This document shows positions 2,401 through 44,779 of a stretch of 57,070 nucleotides of DNA, one piece after another (within the stretch, counting starts at the first letter, position 1; every line of letters begins with the position of its first letter). Both the position numbers and the translations under genes were made by a program. Source of the DNA: a virus; IMG/VR virus record IMGVR_UViG_3300045988_053137, positions 1-57,070 of that record; one strand, 5' to 3'. The notes beneath the pieces were generated by a model. It made no database searches, was not told the DNA's origin, and saw nothing but the letters and a program-made list of their open reading frames with translations.

Positions 2401-2940
2401 TATTCGCAATTTCGATTTTGACAATTTTCGAAATTTGGTTCAGATTTTGTTTAAATCTTACTCTAAAAATTGGAAAAATTTTCTCATAAAATATAATGTG
2501 AAATTTTTGAAACCCCCGTCATATGCAATTTTGAAATCCAAAAATCGGTTACACAGAATTTTAATTTTTGCTCCCGATTTCGTTCGGATTTGCCCTGAAA
2601 AATTGATGAAAAACTTTAACGTGGTAAAGCGCCATATATAAACTTTGCCGGCTGCTGTTCGTGCTTGTTTTGGCGTTGTGACTTTGTGATTTGCCTTGTA
2701 CGGTGGTTTTATTATGTCAATGTAGACTTATAAGCCTACGAAACAAAACAGCCTTAAAACGCTTTTAAATGCATTGTGTAAAATGGGTATAATATGCCCT
2801 TGCAAGTCGCGGAAGCTGTCGCTAGTTCTGGAGAATTCACCAGAACGCACACTGCCCGACTGGGTACACTTGTACACCTGAAAAGGCATAAAAAGCCTTA
2901 TATATAAGCATAGCATTATTATATTATTTTTTCAAGGTAC

Positions 2941-2970
2941 GCAAATAAAAGCATATAAAAATATATATGC
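2941..2970 (-). terminator. AT hairpin plus T-run ending the minus-strand transcription unit
   Basis: Minus strand reads GCATATATATTTTTATATGC followed by TTTTATTTGC. Confidence 0.5.
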
Positions 2971-2974
2971 TTAA

Positions 2975-3015
2975 TGCTTGCGGCTGGAATCGAACCAACC
3001 AAACCACAGCAAGCC
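2975..3015 (-). ncRNA. tRNA-like acceptor/T-arm minihelix B (no D stem or anticodon arm)
   Basis: Minus strand: GGCTTGC-TGTGGTTTG-GTTGG-TTCGATT-CCAGC-C-GCAAGC-A; canonical GGTTCGATTCC T-loop. Confidence 0.45.
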
Positions 3016-3039
3016 AAAAAGGGCGCAGATTGTACGCCC
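3016..3039 (-). terminator. Rho-independent terminator after the 58-codon ORF
   Basis: Minus strand GGGCGTACAATCTGCGCCC followed by TTTTT, directly after the stop codon. Confidence 0.6.
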
Positions 3040-3045
3040 TTAAAA

Positions 3046-3222
3046 TTACCAAAATTCTATATATCCGCCGTTTCTGCGGTAATGGAACCACACGCCCGAA
3101 GCGTAACGGATGCATAATATATTATTGCTTTCTTTCCAGCTTTCCACAGGCTCACCGAACCGCCAAACCTCAAAGACGGATTTATGGAAGCTGTAGCACT
3201 CTTTAATGCTTAAATCTGCCAT
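3046..3222 (-). CDS. Hypothetical 58-aa Trp-rich protein (MADLSIKECYSFHKSVFEVWRFGEP...GGYIEFW)
   Basis: GGAGGTG SD 7 nt before the ATG; translated by hand; below the 60-aa track cutoff; own terminator. Confidence 0.5.
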   Translation of the reverse strand: MADLSIKECYSFHKSVFEVWRFGEPVESWKESNNILCIRYASGVWFHYRRNGGYIEFW

Positions 3223-3264
3223 TCTTGCACCTCCGTATTATAATATTATCCCTTGCAGGACAAA

Positions 3265-3305
3265 AGCAAGCCGGGGAATCGAACCCCGGAGGTGCCAGCC
3301 TTGCT
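3265..3305 (-). ncRNA. tRNA-like acceptor/T-arm minihelix A
   Basis: Minus strand: AGCAAG-GCTGGCACCT-CCGGGG-TTCGATT-CCCCGG-CTTGCT then TTTG. It could also act as the terminator of the upstream ORF. Confidence 0.45.
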
Positions 3306-3307
3306 AA

Positions 3308-3562
3308 TTATGCAATTTTTTCAACTTTTCGCCTTTTCTTTTCGTTCTCTGCTCTGCTTATGCTAGAGTCATCAAAAACAATATTATAATTGCTATCTTT
3401 TAAGACTTTAGCCATTTTAAAAGCGTTAATTTTTGGAAAGCTGCAAACGTACTCAATAACATTCATTCTAATATATCCGTTTTCTTTTCCCAGCTTTTCA
3501 AGGTCCTTTTTATAAAAATTGAACATCCTTATTTCTTTCTGTTCTACTGTTTCGTTCATCAT
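3308..3562 (-). CDS. Hypothetical protein (84 aa)
   Basis: AAGGAGGG SD 8 nt upstream; second gene of the minus-strand operon. Confidence 0.65.
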   Translation of the reverse strand: MMNETVEQKEIRMFNFYKKDLEKLGKENGYIRMNVIEYVCSFPKINAFKMAKVLKDSNYNIVFDDSSISRAENEKKRRKVEKIA

Positions 3563-3576
3563 AGTCTTAACCCTCC

Positions 3577-3957
3577 TTATTCTGTAATTCTTTCAAATAT
3601 ATCTATTGTTTTGCGTGCGCTTGATCTCCTCTTTTCAGCCATATAACTATGGCGCTTGCTCTTTAGGGCTTTTTCAGCTTCCTTAAGGTTTACAACTCCC
3701 CAACCTGCGGCCTCTCTTAATAGCTTAACTTCTTTTTTTGGTAGCTTAATGGCTCTTAAAGTGCCGGGATTGATAGAGTAATTATCTTTAATTCCCAGAT
3801 ATAAATCCTGGCAAAGTGGAATATATTCATCGCTCCCCATATTCTCGCCGATATTCCATACATAGAAACCGAATGGAATCTTTTCGACTATCTTATAAAT
3901 ATCTGTTTTCCCTAATGTTTCACTTGTAATTGTGTCATCCTTAACTTCAAATCTCAT
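3577..3957 (-). CDS. Hypothetical protein (126 aa)
   Basis: First gene of the minus-strand operon downstream of a TTGACT/TATTAT promoter; no family recognised. Confidence 0.7.
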   Translation of the reverse strand: MRFEVKDDTITSETLGKTDIYKIVEKIPFGFYVWNIGENMGSDEYIPLCQDLYLGIKDNYSINPGTLRAIKLPKKEVKLLREAAGWGVVNLKEAEKALKSKRHSYMAEKRRSSARKTIDIFERITE

Positions 3958-4141: not shown

Positions 4142-4170
4142 TTGACTTTATAAGCCACAAATTATATAAT
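4142..4170 (+). promoter_or_regulatory. Sigma-A-type promoter for the HTH gene
   Basis: TTGACT, 17 nt, TATAAT. Confidence 0.6.
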
Positions 4171-4201: not shown

Positions 4202-4408
4202 ATGCTTGTATATAAAATAGATGTGCTTGATACGCTTAAAGAAAGTGGCTATAATTCCACACGCATATTAAAAGAGAACTTAATCAGTCAATCAGCAGTA
4301 CAGAAAATACGCAAAAATGAAATGGTAGGGATTAAGACGATTGAAAAGCTATGTGAGTTGCTGGATATGCAGCCAGGAAACATCATTAAATATGTAGAGA
4401 AAAAATAA
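4202..4408 (+). CDS. XRE/Cro-like helix-turn-helix regulator (68 aa)
   Basis: SQSAVQKIRKNE..IKTIEKLCELLDMQPGNII is a typical short HTH with an LCELLDCQPGDI-type tail. Confidence 0.8.
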   Translation: MLVYKIDVLDTLKESGYNSTRILKENLISQSAVQKIRKNEMVGIKTIEKLCELLDMQPGNIIKYVEKK

Positions 4409-7281: not shown

Positions 7282-7287
7282 CTTAAT

Positions 7288-7359
7288 TGCCCCTTAGCCA
7301 AGCGGTCAAGGCATAAGATTTTGATTCTTACATCATCAGTTCGATTCTGATAGGGGTAG
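7288..7359 (+). tRNA. tRNA-Gln(UUG): tRNA-Gln (anticodon UUG)
   Basis: Hand-folded cloverleaf: acceptor TGCCCCT/AGGGGTA (U1-A72), anticodon loop TTTTGAT, T arm ATCAG-TTCGATT-CTGAT, discriminator G; no encoded CCA. Confidence 0.85.
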
Positions 7360-7775
7360 TTCGCAAGTACTTAATCGTTACTTGCACCTTTGAACTTACT
7401 GGTTTGGTGGAATTACCATGACATTAAGTTCTCCTTTCACCTCATAGCAAGAGCTGTTAAGGACCGTCAGAAAGTCCGTGAGGTTTTACGCATATCCCAC
7501 ACAAATATGCGTAGTAATTATTTCAAATATTTCATAATCAGCAGTTATCCTTAAGGGATAGACAGCGAGCGAAGCCACTTTCTTTGAACAACCAAACTGC
7601 ACGGTGGAATACATCCAGCTTTGCCACGACCTGTTATAGGTGTCATAGCCTATACTGCTGTTAAGGCTAGCACTTTATATTCCCTCAAAACAATATTTTT
7701 AAGCGTATAAATGACCTCTAAAGAATTTATAAATGTGAATTGTTTAATCTCTCTGTGCTAGTCTTTTTATTTTAA
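7360..7775 (+). ncRNA. Hairpin-dense non-coding tract between two tRNAs (candidate large structured RNA)
   Basis: No ORF. Many 6-9-bp stems, for example GCAAGTA/TACTTGC, GAACTTA/TAAGTTC, TACGCATAT/ATATGCGTA and TAGCCT/AGGCTA. Confidence 0.3.
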
Positions 7776-7858
7776 GCCGATATGGGATAAAGGTATTCCA
7801 GTAGCTTGCTAAGCTATCCAACAGAAATGTTGTTCGTGTTCAAGTCACGATGTCGGCG
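7776..7858 (+). tRNA. tRNA-Ser(GCU): tRNA-Ser (anticodon GCU) with a long variable arm
   Basis: Acceptor GCCGATA/TGTCGGC, anticodon loop TTGCTAA, variable arm CCAACAGAAATGTTG, T arm TCGTG-TTCAAGT-CACGA. Confidence 0.85.
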
Positions 7859-7933
7859 TTTTGAAAGCACTTCTTAGGTCTGCGTGCGTAATGCTGTTTG
7901 CGGACTTATCCTAGGTTAAGAGGTGTGAGTAAG

Positions 7934-7977
7934 TTGCTATAAGTGGTGCCGTAAGGTTCGATTCCTTGCATAGCAAT
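7934..7977 (+). ncRNA. tRNA-like acceptor/T-arm minihelix C
   Basis: TTGCTAT-AAGTGGTGCC-GTAAGG-TTCGATT-CCTTGC-ATAGCAA-T; no D stem or anticodon arm. Confidence 0.45.
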
Positions 7978-8098
7978 TACAACAAACTAGGTTAGCTACC
8001 GAAAAGCACTTCCGCTGTGTCTGTTTGTTGTTTTTATCAATCAAGCGGAGCATGTATCACAGGCATACATAAATAATATCAAGCGGAGGTATTCGATT

Positions 8099-40038: not shown

Positions 40039-40057
40039 ATAAAGAAAGGATATGTTT

Positions 40058-42004
40058 ATGGAAAGAGCAGTTTTAAAAAAGGTAGTACTTGAAAACTTTA
40101 TGTGTTATGCACACGCAGAATTTGACTTCTATGCCATTACAAAAATTGTGGCTAAGAATGGCAAGGGCAAGTCGACTATTGCAACGGCTTATCTGTGGTG
40201 CTTGTTTAACTGCGATTATGAATTAAAGGATAATCCAGTAGTTAGACGAGAAGTTGACGGAAAATCAGTTGATGATATGGACACAAGTGTTGAACTTACA
40301 CTTGATGTTGACGGAAAAGAAATCACTATGAAGAAAGTTCAGAAGCGTACTTATAAAGAAGCTGTAAAAGATGGAAAAATTGTAACAACTGTCAGTGATA
40401 ATAACTCTTATTACATCAACAGCGTTCCTAAGACTTTAACAGCATTTAATGAGTATCTGGGCATTAATATGAAGATGTTCAAGGCTTGCAGTAATATCAA
40501 TGCTTTTCTTAGTAGAAAGCCAGATGAAATGAGAGAATATCTTTTCAGTTTAATTGAAAGTGTTACGGACTTAGATATGGCAAGGTCAAGAAAAGAGTTG
40601 GCAGAATTAGTACCAATGCTTGAAAAATACACTGTCGAAGAAATCCGCTCAATGAATAAATTGATTTCGTCTAATGTTGACAAGCAATCGCCTGTTATTG
40701 ACGGACAGATTAAGGAAAAGGAAAGAGATATTCAGATTAAATCTGATATTGATGTATCTGACCTTGAATTGCTTAGAAATAGCCTTAAAGAACAGATTAC
40801 TGATTGCATTGCAAAGCAGACTGACAATGACAAGCTGATAGATGAATATGACAAGGCTAGTGCAGATGTTCTTGATTTGAAGTTCAAGCAGGGAGATTTA
40901 TCACGCAAGGCTAACGAGGAGAATATCAAGGTTAGAAGAGAGATTGAGGACAAGATTGCTGATAAGAAGTTTCTTGTTAAGCAGACAAAAAAGACTGTTG
41001 CCGATACCGAAAGATGTATTGTTAGTTCGGAAAAGGCTATTGAGTGCATTAAGGCTTCCTTGCAGACAGAGCGTGATAAGTGGAAAGAAGAAAACGAGCG
41101 CAAGTTTGACGATTCGAGCCTTATCTGTCCTTATTGCGGTAATGAATATAAGGAAGATAAGAAAGAACAGTTAAAGGCTGATTTTGCAAAACATAAGGCT
41201 GATAACTTAAAGACAATTACTGATAATGGCAATATGTACAAGGAAAGGCTTGATAAGGAAAAAGCTAAGCTTGAAAGTCTTAAAGCAGAGTTGCCACAGC
41301 ACAAAGAAAGCCTTGAAATGCTGAATACAGCCATTGCAGACCTTGAAAAGCAGTTATCCGAACTTCCACAGGAAATTGATGTGACAGTAACAGAAGAGTA
41401 CAAGGCACTTGAACAGCAGATTGCCGAAAAAGAAGAAGCTATGCACAAGGCTAATGACATATCGGCAGTTAAGGCTGAATTAAAGGCACAGGAAAGCGAA
41501 CTTAGGCAGCAGCTATCAGAAGTTGAACAGAAGATTGCTGAAAGTAACACAGAGAGAGACGAACAGCGGCTTGAAGAATTAAAGCAGACAAGGATTGATA
41601 GCGAACAGAATAAGGCTAATGCCGAGAAAATTATTGATTTACTTGACGAATTAGACAAAACAAAGAACGAAACCTTGACAGAAGCAGTAAACAGCCATTT
41701 TGGGTTAGTTAAGTGGCAGTTGTTTACTTATACAAAGTCTGGTGGTTACAAGAGTTGTTGCATACCTACAGTTGACGGAAAGAGTATTTTAACAACTATG
41801 TCTAACAAGGGCAACAGGATTTTAGGCAGAGTTGATATTTGCAATTCTATTCAGAAGATTAGTGGTATATCAGTGCCTATTGTTTTAGATAATTCTGAAA
41901 GCCTTAGCACAGATAATCAGAAGAAAGTTGCCGAAATGGTAGATAGTCAGTTGATTATGCTGATTGTTAATGATAGTGAGAAATTAGAGATTGTGGAGGG
42001 ATAA
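40058..42004 (+). CDS. SMC/Rad50-like AAA ATPase with a long coiled coil and a CxxC hook
   Basis: N-terminal KNGKGKST Walker A, roughly 350-aa coiled coil with CPYCG, C-terminal VLDNSESL. Confidence 0.75.
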   Translation: MERAVLKKVVLENFMCYAHAEFDFYAITKIVAKNGKGKSTIATAYLWCLFNCDYELKDNPVVRREVDGKSVDDMDTSVELTLDVDGKEITMKKVQKRTYKEAVKDGKIVTTVSDNNSYYINSVPKTLTAFNEYLGINMKMFKACSNINAFLSRKPDEMREYLFSLIESVTDLDMARSRKELAELVPMLEKYTVEEIRSMNKLISSNVDKQSPVIDGQIKEKERDIQIKSDIDVSDLELLRNSLKEQITDCIAKQTDNDKLIDEYDKASADVLDLKFKQGDLSRKANEENIKVRREIEDKIADKKFLVKQTKKTVADTERCIVSSEKAIECIKASLQTERDKWKEENERKFDDSSLICPYCGNEYKEDKKEQLKADFAKHKADNLKTITDNGNMYKERLDKEKAKLESLKAELPQHKESLEMLNTAIADLEKQLSELPQEIDVTVTEEYKALEQQIAEKEEAMHKANDISAVKAELKAQESELRQQLSEVEQKIAESNTERDEQRLEELKQTRIDSEQNKANAEKIIDLLDELDKTKNETLTEAVNSHFGLVKWQLFTYTKSGGYKSCCIPTVDGKSILTTMSNKGNRILGRVDICNSIQKISGISVPIVLDNSESLSTDNQKKVAEMVDSQLIMLIVNDSEKLEIVEG

Positions 42005-42009
42005 GCGCT

Positions 42010-42549
42010 ATGAATGATAGATATGTTGTAGAGCGTGAGTTTGAACACCTTGGATACAAATGTGTTGTTATATTCGGCGCAATAGGGCATAGATGTGGAT
42101 ATGTTGGCGTTCCAAAGAATCATCCGCTATATGGCAAGAACTATTCAGACTATCTTGAAATTAAAAAGGAAGATTTGAAGAGTAGAGAGATAAGTGGTGT
42201 TTTTCCTTTGCTGGGCACTTGCTTTGATAAGGACGAAAGAATCCGCATTGAAGCATATTTTCAGTGTCACGGTGGCATTACATATGCAGGCGGTGGAGAG
42301 CATTCAAGTTATCCAATCGAGAGTGATTTGTGGCGGTTCGGATTTGATTGCGGACATTACGGTGACGCAAGGGAACTTAAACTTGCTTATGAGAAATTTC
42401 CCAATTATAGAAGCAACCTTGCTATACAGATTGAGTGTGAGGACAGATTCCGTATTGAAGGATTGATAATCCGTACAGAAGAATATGTAGCAGAAGAGTG
42501 CAAGAAGTTAGCGGAACAGTTAAAAGAGTTTGAAGAAAGTGAGGATTAA
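42010..42549 (+). CDS. Conserved phage protein with His-rich motifs
   Basis: GHRCGYVGVP ... CHGGITY ... GFDCGHYGD; family not recognised. Confidence 0.6.
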   Translation: MNDRYVVEREFEHLGYKCVVIFGAIGHRCGYVGVPKNHPLYGKNYSDYLEIKKEDLKSREISGVFPLLGTCFDKDERIRIEAYFQCHGGITYAGGGEHSSYPIESDLWRFGFDCGHYGDARELKLAYEKFPNYRSNLAIQIECEDRFRIEGLIIRTEEYVAEECKKLAEQLKEFEESED

Positions 42550-42551
42550 TT

Positions 42552-43436
42552 ATGGCAGAGAATACAGCAGTTGTGGAAAAGAAAGAAGCTGAAAGCAGAG
42601 AACTTGTAGCAAAGGACTTTACAGAGGGAATGGTTGTAAAAATCAAGCAGAAAGAAAAATTTGGCTTGACATTCCCAAAGGATTATAATTACACAAACGA
42701 ATTTATGTCAGCAATGCTGATTTTACAGGACACAGTAGATATGAATAAGAAGCCTGTATTACAGAGTTGCACTAGGGCAAGTATTGAGAATGCACTTGTT
42801 GAAATGGTTACGAACGGACTTTCAATGCAGAAGAAACAGTGCTACCCGGTTGCTTATGGTGGCAAGCTACAGTGTCAGAAGTCAGTGTATGGAAATACTT
42901 GTATAGCAAGGAGATTTGGACTTAAAGACATTAATGCAGCGGTCATTTACAAGGGAGATGTGTTCAAGTATCACAAAGAGGACGCAAAGACAATTATTGA
43001 TTGCCACGAACAGAGTTTTGAGAACATTGACAATGATAAGATTGTTGGTGCTTATGCGGTAGCTGTTATGGATGGCGGAGAGAAAATATCAGAAGTTATG
43101 ACCATTGCACAGATTAAGCAGGCTTGGAAGCAGGGATATGGGTACAAGGAGAATGGGAACGGCGCTCATCAGAAATTTGCTGACCAGATGGCTATGAAAA
43201 CCGTCAAAAATAGATTACTTAAATATATCAATAATTCCCATAGTGGCAATGAAAATGAGGATTACGAGGAAATCAGCCACGATGAAATGCTTGAACAGGA
43301 TGTAGCTTACGATATTGAACAAAACGCAAACGCAGTAGATTTTGACGAAAGCGACATTATCGACAGCACAGCCACAGAAGCAACCGAAGAACAGGCAGAA
43401 GATAGCACATTACCGCCATTTATGCAGGCAGAATAG
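42552..43436 (+). CDS. recT: RecT-family single-strand annealing recombinase
   Basis: KKQCYPVAYGGKLQCQKSVYG...AVIYKGDVFKY is RecT-like; acidic tail. Confidence 0.8.
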   Translation: MAENTAVVEKKEAESRELVAKDFTEGMVVKIKQKEKFGLTFPKDYNYTNEFMSAMLILQDTVDMNKKPVLQSCTRASIENALVEMVTNGLSMQKKQCYPVAYGGKLQCQKSVYGNTCIARRFGLKDINAAVIYKGDVFKYHKEDAKTIIDCHEQSFENIDNDKIVGAYAVAVMDGGEKISEVMTIAQIKQAWKQGYGYKENGNGAHQKFADQMAMKTVKNRLLKYINNSHSGNENEDYEEISHDEMLEQDVAYDIEQNANAVDFDESDIIDSTATEATEEQAEDSTLPPFMQAE

Positions 43437-44050: not shown

Positions 44051-44779
44051 ATGTACTTAAAATGTTTAGGCTCATCGTCAGCCGGAAATTGCTATCTGCT
44101 AACTTCCAGCAGTGGAGAAACACTTATCCTTGATTGCGGAATACCGATTAAGGAGATTAAAAAAGGCTTAGATTGGAACATTAAAGATGTTGTGGGTACG
44201 ATATGTACCCACCACCACCAAGACCATTCGTTATCAGTTTATCCTTTAAGAAGAATGGGAATACCTGTATTCGCACCATACATAAGCAAAAAACCTATGA
44301 AAATTGGTAATGGAGATTTTAGAGTACAGGCATTTGATTTAACAACAATAGACGGAAATTGGACGCATACCAATGCAGACGGAACGCTTTGTCCGATATA
44401 CGGCTTCCTGATAACTCACAAGGAAATGGGGAGAATGCTTTACATTACTGACACAGAGTTAATTAAGTGGAGGTTTAGAGGCATAAACCACATTCTCTTA
44501 GGTGTGAATTATGACAAGGATTTAATCGACAGGGATAACACAGGCAAAACTAATCACGTATTCAGAGGTCACTTAAGCATTGACACGGCTTGTGATTTTG
44601 TTAAGGCAAATTATTCAGACAGCTTGCAGAACGTCATAATGTGTCATTTATCGGCAGAAAATTCTGATAGAGATAGTTTTATCGAGAAGATGAAAAAAGT
44701 TGCTTATGGGGCAAATGTAGATGTTGCAGAGCGTAACAAGGAATGGATTTTAAGGAAAGGAGATGAATGCCCGTTTTGA
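44051..44779 (+). CDS. MBL-fold metallo-hydrolase
   Basis: LGSSSAGNCYLL...LILDCG...THHHQDH (HxHxDH). Confidence 0.8.
   Translation: MYLKCLGSSSAGNCYLLTSSSGETLILDCGIPIKEIKKGLDWNIKDVVGTICTHHHQDHSLSVYPLRRMGIPVFAPYISKKPMKIGNGDFRVQAFDLTTIDGNWTHTNADGTLCPIYGFLITHKEMGRMLYITDTELIKWRFRGINHILLGVNYDKDLIDRDNTGKTNHVFRGHLSIDTACDFVKANYSDSLQNVIMCHLSAENSDRDSFIEKMKKVAYGANVDVAERNKEWILRKGDECPF

Follow-up and report, generated by a model that had tools for sequence, protein, structure and literature searches.

Minimal tRNA top-half elements at gene boundaries in the early operons of gut phages

What are two partial tRNAs doing on either side of a small gene in a phage operon? The question is raised by the viral record IMGVR_UViG_3300045988_053137 of IMG/VR, all 57,070 nucleotides (nt) of which were analysed here (hereafter, the window). 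An initial annotation, made from the sequence alone, had pointed to two minus-strand elements, A and B, that resemble the acceptor and T arms of a tRNA and enclose a 58-codon open reading frame (ORF). We find that A, B and a third copy, C, represent a class of minimal tRNA top halves in the operons of gut phages; the class is real and conserved, and had not been annotated before. With confidence only a little above even, we read A and B as cis-acting RNA processing signals, that is, RNase P/RNase Z punctuation of the leftward early operon, equivalent to the hammerhead ribozymes found there in related phages.

Anatomy, conservation and class of the elements

The three elements and their parts are as follows.

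Element A: 3265..3305, minus strand, tRNA top-half minihelix that begins 2 nt past the ORF84 stop codon
Parts of A: minus strand, acceptor 5' strand 3305-3300; linker 3299-3290, with GG at 3296-3295; acceptor 3' strand 3270-3265
T arm of A: minus strand, T stem 3289-3284 + 3276-3271; T loop TTCGATT 3283-3277
Element B: 2976..3014, minus strand, tRNA top-half minihelix; folding in context z = -4.1
Parts of B: minus strand, acceptor 5' strand 3014-3009; linker 3008-3001, with GG at 3005-3004; acceptor 3' strand 2981-2976
T arm of B: minus strand, T stem 3000-2995 + 2987-2982; T loop 2994-2988
Element C: 7932..7978, plus strand, third minihelix with 9-bp acceptor and 6-bp T stem, in the tRNA array

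Read from acceptor 5' strand through linker, T stem, T loop and T stem to acceptor 3' strand, A (3305 to 3265) is AGCAAG / GCTGGCACCT / CCGGGG / TTCGATT / CCCCGG / CTTGCT, B (3014 to 2976) is GCTTGC / TGTGGTTT / GGTTGG / TTCGATT / CCAGCC / GCAAGC, and C (7932 to 7978) is AGTTGCTAT / AAGTGGTGCC / GTAAGG / TTCGATT / CCTTGC / ATAGCAATT. The common plan is a 6-bp T stem set flush on an acceptor-like stem of 6-9 bp, with a 5' linker of 8-10 nt that contains GG. In A and B the two stems add up to 6+6 = 12 bp, the value in tRNA, and the 3' strand is unbroken between them. This structure is the minimum-energy fold of A, B and C when each is isolated. Reading of the sequence and a mechanical scan agree on all three elements, and the proposed acceptor/T-arm architecture is real. 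B had been drawn from 3015 to 2975; its core minihelix stands, and the extra terminal G and A are unpaired, leaving 3014 to 2976 as the element. Neither A nor B encodes CCA, as had been noted: TTTG follows A and ATTA follows B.

The 11-nt T-loop sequence GGTTCGATTCC occurs three times, at 2986-2996 (minus), 3275-3285 (minus) and 7955-7965 (plus). The window's tRNAs, called by ARAGORN at 7287-7360 and 7776-7858, overlap none of these copies, in agreement with the earlier count. Dinucleotide shuffles, with up to one mismatch allowed, hold 0.28 copies on average and reached three in 2 of 100 cases. Random flanks complete the architecture around a given 11-mer with P = 9e-4, and whole-window shuffles yield 0.02 such structures against the three observed.

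We also examined loci and contigs of related phages from IMG/VR and gut metagenomes, given L-numbers below. In the window the leftward, minus-strand operon runs ORF126 (3957-3577), ORF84 (3562-3308), A, ORF58 (3222-3046), hairpin, B, hairpin. The features that adjoin A and B are:

ORF84: 3308..3562, minus strand, upstream gene of the leftward operon, with 49 homologous loci; its stop codon TAA (3310-3308) abuts A
Small hairpin UUGUCCU GCAA GGGAUAA: 3246..3263, minus strand, 2-4 nt past A, in the 5' untranslated region of the next gene
ORF58: 3046..3222, minus strand, variable cargo gene between A and B; Shine-Dalgarno (SD) sequence GGAGGTG at 3234-3228
Terminator-like hairpin AAGGGCGTACAATCTGCGCCCTT plus U run: 3015..3041, minus strand, directly abutting B; a conserved part of the B module
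AT-rich hairpin GCATATATATTTTTATATGC plus UUUU: 2947..2970, minus strand, immediately 3' of B

More than 120 metagenome contigs carry a conserved A. Both A and B recur, on the coding strand of a leftward early operon, in well over 100 related gut phages. A-type elements follow 46 of the 49 ORF84 homologues (one being an A/B hybrid, in L018) and also at least five other, unrelated upstream genes, always 0-5 nt past the stop codon or overlapping it. The 3' half of B was found in 92 IMG/VR contigs. Of the 71 contigs that extend far enough upstream, 59 have an A-type T arm at a distance of 368-945 nt upstream of B. The cargo between the two varies among genomes, from ORF58 in the window to a 240-amino-acid protein or one to three ORFs of 41-94 amino acids. 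In other words, the A/B bracket is a conserved pair of boundary modules enclosing variable cargo, a point that the initial annotation had missed. ORF58 itself is a real gene, as its description as a well-formed micro-gene implied, with homologues 74-83% identical in six viral contigs. The terminator that had been called its own precedes B whatever the cargo, and is therefore assigned to the B module.

The elements are always intergenic and always on the coding strand of the operon. Past A come a hairpin, an A-rich stretch, an SD and the next gene. The hairpin keeps its pairing while its stem sequence shifts (CCC-GTAA-GGG, CCCG-GAAA-CGGG, CCCGG-ATAA-CCGGG and CCTC-ATAA-GAGG in relatives). Past B, the operon of a relative either ends with the AT-rich hairpin or goes on with a different hairpin, an SD and one more gene.

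Two further types, D and F, occupy the second position in relatives with the same layout and unrelated helix sequences; types A, B, C, D and F thus all share the architecture despite unrelated helices. Given that a MAFFT alignment of all types mis-registers the 5' acceptor strands, pair statistics were taken from our own parsing and from a model-fitted alignment of 33 distinct sequences. In the latter, pairing holds in 97.7% of cells, and both partners change in 9 of the 12 pairs; none of 500 shuffles reaches either pairing value, and slid controls all fall below as well. A covariance model (R1) built from A, C and F proved too A-specific, with B types scoring just 16-17 bits. Transitions in the acceptor 5' strand are mostly G.U-compatible, about 33 pair-keeping contexts against about 7 pair-breaking ones for A, and 6 against 1 for B. 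The commonest A variant changes AGCAAG to GGCAAG (30 contexts) and keeps the terminal pair as G.U on this strand. In such variants (for example L246 and L137; TTATTTAGGCAAGC) the TAG stop codon of the upstream ORF overlaps the first acceptor base. RNase P, if it cut at the edge of the helix, would therefore cut within the stop codon, which recalls the incomplete stop codons that go with tRNA punctuation in mitochondria.

The linker has a pattern of its own. Among 40 unique 10-nt A linkers the consensus is G-Y-Y-G-G-C-N-Y-T-T, with G at position 4 in 39 and at position 5 in 34; the GG is conserved and neighbouring positions vary. Long linkers contain a hairpin of 4 bp, whose 5-nt loop carries GG and whose stems covary (TAAG/CTTA, TGCA/TGCA, CGTA/TACG), a D-arm-like feature. 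The conserved GG and these hairpins together support the suggestion that the linker GG is an analogue of G18-G19 of the D loop.

Two groups of sequences lie at the margin of the class. What we call E-type elements (L047 3839-3880, L048 3840-3881, L213 ~1893-1940, L046 ~3640-3690) have the conserved linker AGAGGATGCG in common, along with an acceptor-like stem that shows a single compensatory change (CTGCCG/CGGCAG versus CCGCCG/CGGCGG); the loops, ATCGTTA and ACCGATG, are not T loops and are followed by 5-7 U. The 21-nt 3' half of A is also present in a high-G+C context in L262, L294 and L302, non-gut metagenome contigs from the JGI. There it lacks the 5' acceptor strand, the T stem is mismatched and ARAGORN calls no tRNA; these matches are probably unrelated to A.

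To which known class, then, do the elements belong? They go unseen by tRNA finders and by Rfam. The only ARAGORN calls in the window are the two tRNAs named above, the Rfam tRNA family (RF00005) matches only 7288-7359, and in 30 relatives the slots of A and B were free of tRNA calls. On A and B every Rfam family stays below threshold; the best match, and the only one of the tRNA clan on B, is tRNA-Sec on B (28.1 bits, gathering score 47), and mascRNA-menRNA (RF01684) scores 16.3 bits against a gathering score of 42.5 (E = 3.5). Membership in the tRNA-like domains of transfer-messenger RNA (tmRNA) or Y RNA, which had been proposed, finds no support. ARAGORN, which also searches for tmRNA, reports none, and Rfam has no tmRNA match up to E = 10 and no match to YrlA or other bacterial Y RNA up to E = 10 in 2600-3700. 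Unlike in the tmRNA domain, the acceptor strands of A and B are separated by merely 8-10 nt and the T arm; a Ro-binding helix is impossible in a 41-nt element, and no Ro/TROVE family was found among the subset of ORFs scanned. A, B and C have no catalytic core of the type II hammerhead (RF02276), which consists of CUGAUGA, GAAA and a UH cleavage site among three stems, and the window contains no hammerhead. What they do have is the pattern of the t-elements of plant mitochondria: a GGTTCRANYCC T-arm motif within a tRNA-like fold with an acceptor-like stem, and for A and B a place at gene boundaries on the coding strand of a polycistronic unit, in the window and in relatives.

Some features recall intrinsic terminators. 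The elements could be structural stabilisers, weak terminators or attenuators, in which GC-rich hairpins would make RNA polymerase pause or stop or would hold back exonucleases and neither RNase P nor RNase Z would be involved, with a T-loop resemblance inherited from a tRNA ancestor. A consensus scan flags the T arm of A in the window as terminator-like, A is often followed by UUU(U), B lies between two terminator-like hairpins, the related E-type elements combine non-T-loop loops with a U run, and some A variants have lost the T-loop sequence. Counter to this, many A variants continue with CUACCC or AAAAUAAAAG and have no U tract, and B continues with AUUAAGC or ACUAAGC, all B variants being without one. 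A 10-nt bulge in the stem would be atypical of an intrinsic terminator, the vast majority of copies have an exact T loop, the GG of the linker is conserved, and A stands upstream of genes that still need to be transcribed. We give this explanation a low probability.

Hammerheads in the same slots and the proposed processing

The initial annotation offered four interpretations, and comparison with relatives favours one of them, processing punctuation. In the three most distant ORF84 loci (L047-L049) a type II hammerhead stands directly after the stop codon, in the slot of A. It scores 61 bits in L047 and 58.9 bits in L048 (Rfam gathering score 37); L049 is under the gathering score and is counted by a regular-expression match to the catalytic core alone. 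Across relatives, Rfam-scored hammerheads reach 58.9-66.9 bits (L027, L032, L033, L039, L047, L048). In many relatives two type II subtypes are found in other intergenic slots of this operon, in every case on the coding strand, and hammerhead cores are found in 19 of 71 loci that carry B. L136 has a series of hammerhead, hammerhead, A-type and F-type elements at spacings of 350-560 nt. Clustering of the first gene downstream of every element revealed a direct substitution: one gene family (MNYKKHAKH...), with an identical SD region, follows A and a hairpin in L186 and L190, whereas in L213 it follows a hammerhead of a low-scoring subtype (27.3 bits, under the gathering score) with a complete core. 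From these sequences, hammerheads and minihelices appear to be interchangeable types of module. As related phages carry hammerheads in the same slots, the minihelices are most likely cutting signals.

Clustered hammerheads are known from prophages, including one of the Lachnospiraceae member C. scindens, where they flank changing genes and have been proposed to cut long phage transcripts into gene-length mRNAs (PMC3088659). The role of the hundreds of bacterial and phage hammerheads and other self-cleaving ribozymes is still listed as open (PMC6765202). In the literature we found no description of tRNA-like minihelices in phage operons or beside hammerheads.

Each of A and B is a natural tRNA top half, with a 12-bp coaxial acceptor/T helix, a canonical T loop and a linker GG able to mimic the elbow contact of the D loop. 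In the processing that we propose, host RNase P would cut at the 5' edge, at T3306/A3305 for A and G3015/G3014 for B, and RNase Z would cut the CCA-less 3' side past the discriminator. RNase Z is the usual route for CCA-less precursors in Bacillota. A minihelix of ~40 nt would thereby be excised and the polycistronic RNA split into cassette-length mRNAs. The flanking hairpins, now terminal, would protect the new 3' and 5' ends. This would be the job done by type II hammerheads at equivalent intergenic positions in sister phages, and C would do it upstream of the small int-alpA RNA, standing in for a full tRNA.

We infer the cleavage and the enzymes from two precedents. Hairpins made of an acceptor stem and T-stem-loop are established and sufficient RNase P substrates, and phage RNAs other than tRNA are also processed by this enzyme (PMC11143913). 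In plant mitochondria, t-elements, which were found through the GGTTCRANYCC motif, yield mRNA ends when RNase P cuts on their 5' side and RNase Z on their 3' side, and the released element can gain non-templated C or CA (PMC1920247).

The third element places the same architecture in a different setting, in which its neighbour is a known motif.

int-alpA RNA (RF02996): 7980..8046, plus strand, directly 3' of C; 42.5 bits, gathering score 35.8

C ends 1 nt before this RNA. In most of 80 relatives the slot 1-4 nt upstream of int-alpA is filled by a complete tRNA (Sup-UUA, Gln or Leu); C fills it in the window, L165 and L229. The variants of C in L165 and L229 keep the pairing (CCTTGC to CCTTAC, and ATAGCAA to GTAGCAA, that is, U.G to U-A and U-A to U.G). 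C replaces a full tRNA, and a top half is apparently enough at a place where the 5' end of the downstream RNA is normally set by a tRNA. The distance from the 3' end of the tRNA, or of C, to the start of int-alpA, which is always 1-4 nt and in relatives with a tRNA 3-4 nt (for example L073 2382-2448, L057 2381-2448, L100 1808-1873 and L123 2012-2077, with two copies in L152), suggests that the int-alpA 5' end is made by tRNA 3' processing. The term int-alpA retrieved one paper alone from the literature, and that paper is unrelated.

Several other observations concern this array. In many relatives the slot of C holds a suppressor tRNA with anticodon UUA, which reads the UAA stop (L073 2307-2378, L057 2306-2377, L106 1937-2008, L100 1733-1804, L113 1990-2061). 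It holds tRNA-Gln in L123 and tRNA-Leu(UAA) in L097, and the window has no suppressor tRNA. Long tRNA-like genes that ARAGORN does not call (L073 2046-2163; L059 1943-2100 and 2242-2378) have proper acceptor and T arms, with 50-100 nt of extra sequence that replaces or interrupts the anticodon region; the one in L073 shares its acceptor (TTGCTATG/CATAGCAA) with C. In the window, the ~400 nt between tRNA-Gln and tRNA-Ser (7361-7775, plus strand) contain no convincing ORF and no Rfam match at the gathering threshold, are 75-99% identical in ~38 of 80 relatives, and may be another structured RNA. The tRNA-Ser(GCU) called by ARAGORN at 7776-7858 (plus) falls under the Rfam tRNA gathering score and has a diverged T arm; its orthologue in L073 (1890-1972) reaches the threshold, with 56 bits.

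Could the minihelices instead act in trans, as decoys or sponges for tRNA-directed host nucleases or nucleotidyltransferase toxins, or as substrates for CCA addition or modification? Excision from the operon would then be no more than the way in which they are produced. Arguing for this, the T arm of A is conserved beyond what pairing needs, the elbow-mimicking GG is conserved, and C lies in a tRNA array. Phage early operons also often hold anti-defence functions. Yet the elements are tied in position to gene boundaries and not to a dedicated promoter, and in L018 they are lost along with the cargo. They have no anticodon arm, and thus could not decoy anticodon nucleases. A hammerhead in the same slot yields no tRNA-like product, and substitution by a ribozyme is not something that this model predicts. 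We consider it unlikely.

Several points weigh against processing by RNase P and RNase Z. The 33-sequence alignment was fitted to the structure, and its double changes stem from comparison across types. Type A stems hardly vary (CCGGGG in 120 of 131 contexts) and show little covariation. The compensatory evidence is therefore mainly cross-type, between types that are possibly not homologous. The T stem of B has an uncompensated A.C mismatch (GACTGG) in 11 of 34 contexts, some A variants (L032-L036) have degenerate loops, ATCGAGT and ATCGTG, that are not T loops, and E-type elements may mimic no tRNA and simply be terminators with a bulge. Transcription of B may be poor, for its place behind a terminator-like hairpin leaves it to read-through alone. 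The cargo-less hybrid of L018 shows that the elements are dispensable when there is no cargo. Finally, the local minimum-energy fold pairs the A linker with the ORF58 SD and leaves the acceptor stem unclosed. The linker together with the start of the T stem (3292-3299, minus; GCACCUCC) exactly complements the SD region (3227-3234, minus; GGAGGUGC), a complementarity seen in this genome only and not kept in relatives.

Recombination at the elements and the phage that carries them

The 3' end of A and the 5' end of B have in common the 8-nt direct repeat GGCTTGCT, in addition to the 11-nt T-loop sequence common to the elements. The initial annotation took the former as a sign of alternative A:B pairing that would loop out the ORF. 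Such long-range pairing would be a pseudoknot, and because types D and F share no complementarity with A, it is not common to A-D or A-F pairs; we rejected it. Three relatives suggest a better explanation of the repeat. L018 is a cargo-less hybrid of A 5' and B 3' halves with its junction in the T loop, L261 is a cargo-less A-B composite with its junction at GGCTTGCT, and in L205 the 3' half of A stands alone behind an unrelated gene. These recombinant products show directly in the sequence that the shared T loop and GGCTTGCT serve, as a secondary effect at the level of DNA, as crossover points for gain and loss of cargo, which the initial annotation had not considered. Crossover at shared sequences would plausibly aid cargo turnover in a phage that encodes RecT.

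It could be argued that nothing more is needed: the elements would be conserved short sequences that mark mosaic boundaries in the DNA, where phage recombination exchanges or removes cargo, and folding of the RNA would serve no purpose. The breakpoints inside the elements (L018, L205, L261), the RecT and Rad50-like ATPase encoded by the phage, and the sequence conservation of type A with its few compensatory changes are in line with this. However, such boundaries leave unexplained why at least five types unrelated in sequence have the same 12-bp tRNA-like geometry, T loop and linker GG, why all copies lie on the coding strand, why the D-arm-like and downstream hairpins covary, and why the same slots are filled by hammerhead ribozymes. 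A function in RNA can coexist with recombination at the elements and is not replaced by it; as the whole explanation, recombination seems rather improbable.

The elements might also be relics of tRNA-embedded attachment (att) sites, left by integration into host tRNA genes, as the initial annotation considered. The T arm and the acceptor 3' strand form the typical identity block of tRNA-targeting integrases, and C adjoins int-alpA, a motif named for its association with integrase and alpA genes. Against this, the 21-nt 3' half of A, which alone was used as the query, is matched exactly at five places in 185,579 species genomes. No tRNA gene is among them, and at four of the five it is the same minihelix that recurs, in a phage-like setting. 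The phage has a large serine recombinase as its integrase. A complementary 5' acceptor strand and a linker would not belong to such a relic, and direct-repeat identity between A and B is limited to 11 nt and 8 nt. With no host tRNA sharing the A 3' half and a serine recombinase as integrase, this origin is close to refuted, and we regard it as highly improbable.

The phage is temperate and of the siphovirus type, with a genome of ~57 kb and 36% G+C that encodes an SPP1-type portal, an E-type capsid protein, RecT, SSB, a Rad50-like ATPase, a DNA methylase and the large serine recombinase; RecT and the Rad50-like ATPase lie at 40052-43436. Relatives of 52-60 kb number in the hundreds in IMG/VR and gut metagenomes. 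In INPHARED (GenBank phage records) neither the region nor A nor the B module has a match, and no annotated relative is found there. Pfam and PHROGs assign no family to ORF58, ORF84 or ORF126, nor does Pfam to ten cargo proteins of relatives. A Cro-like helix-turn-helix gene (4202-4408) diverges from the leftward operon, and a consensus scan places back-to-back promoter-like sites between them (4106-4078, minus, and 4142-4170, plus). The orientation of the genes and the site at 4106-4078 point to transcription of the operon as a leftward unit.

The host is probably a member of the Lachnospiraceae, given that A-type elements are also present on a 91-kb Lachnospiraceae contig and on a scaffold of Clostridium sp. 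CAG:510. Two gut-metagenome CRISPR arrays (L287 1362-1430, and the whole of locus L340) each have a spacer that matches A, and could serve as pointers to hosts. One has 35 copies of GTTTCAATACATCTCATGTTGTAGTTTATC and the other 53 copies of ATTTACATTCCACTATGGTTCTATTCTAAT, and a second spacer in L340 matches the conserved region 3' of B. That region (2642-2950, minus), ~330 nt of non-coding sequence with ~84% conservation, has indels whose lengths are not multiples of 3 as well as a promoter-like TTGAAA-17-TATGCT at 2935-2907, and RNAalifold gave no clear structure or strand preference. The ORF62 and ORF63 listed in it are probably spurious.

A metallo-beta-lactamase (MBL)-fold hydrolase is encoded at 44051-44779 (plus), inside the RecT/SSB/Rad50-like module. 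Its best NCBIfam matches are RNase Z models, at 21-22 bits against cut-offs of 252-293, and a sequence search of the PDB gave no match. We considered and rejected it as a phage-encoded RNase Z, on scores far under the cut-offs and its position, and do not count it as evidence; from that position it is probably a recombination nuclease.

Comparison with known systems

Among the closest counterparts are the t-elements of plant mitochondria (PMC1920247), which share the GGTTCRANYCC T-arm motif, a position at gene boundaries in mRNA precursors and the lack of an encoded CCA. They are organellar, mostly degenerate cloverleaves rather than a minimal acceptor/T helix, and are not known to interchange with ribozymes or to bracket variable cargo. 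Cleavage of t-elements has been mapped experimentally, whereas the phage elements are known here from sequence. In mascRNA and MEN-beta (of MALAT1 and NEAT1; RF01684), too, a tRNA-like module lies in a long transcript. The RNase P cut makes the 3' end of the upstream RNA, which an adjacent structure protects, and RNase Z frees the small RNA; these modules are eukaryotic and near-complete cloverleaves.

The prophage hammerheads (PMC3088659; RF02276) agree with the minihelices in their occurrence in Lachnospiraceae prophages (C. scindens was tested in that study), in operon, strand and intergenic slots, and in the changing genes, single or in short blocks, that they flank. Hammerheads cleave themselves and leave 2',3'-cyclic phosphate and 5'-OH ends; in contrast, the minihelices have no catalytic core and would need host enzymes, which would leave 3'-OH and 5'-phosphate ends. 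If the minihelices are cut by RNase P and RNase Z, the exchange of one for the other would be a natural substitution experiment, in which the job of the ribozyme is punctuation and not ligation, circularisation or sensing. Comparative evidence that the long-unexplained hammerheads of bacteria and phages do no more than punctuate mRNA would thereby exist for the first time. The main value of the finding is that the function of phage hammerheads becomes experimentally testable.

As for RNase P substrates, synthetic acceptor/T-stem-loop RNAs of the AT-1 type (PMC11143913) establish that the same minimal domain suffices for correct cleavage; they are artificial and usually have a 3' CCA. The M3 RNA of phi80 and the C4 RNA precursor of P1/P7 (PMC11143913) are natural phage substrates other than tRNA, and are single small RNAs rather than operon punctuation. 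tmRNA and YrlA have an acceptor/T-arm domain with no anticodon arm and a T-loop/D-loop-like contact. What links their 5' and 3' ends is a large functional body, made up of pseudoknots and a tag ORF in tmRNA and of a Ro-binding helix in YrlA; here a linker of 8-10 nt takes its place.

RiboJ (a hammerhead and a hairpin) and polycistronic tRNA-guide RNA arrays are synthetic RNA insulators, in which a cleavage module, a ribozyme or a tRNA cut by RNase P/Z, followed by a small hairpin gives each downstream gene a defined 5' end whatever lies upstream. A and its hairpin would follow the same logic. Those arrangements are engineered and that of the phage is natural, where insulation would be the expected effect. 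It is possible, if still doubtful, that the early operons as a whole are cassettes bounded by interchangeable RNA-cutting modules, hammerhead or tRNA top half, which would be natural insulators with shared nucleotides that double as crossover points. If the minihelices are cut as proposed, they would show how RNA modules can also seed mosaic recombination in phage genomes, and a natural RNase P/Z cassette of ~40 nt would be usable as an insulator in Bacillota. By analogy, the elements resemble in kind the processing signals of the t-element and mascRNA type, and, should they be cut as these are, the tRNA-punctuation processing of mitochondria and MALAT1 would extend to bacteriophages.

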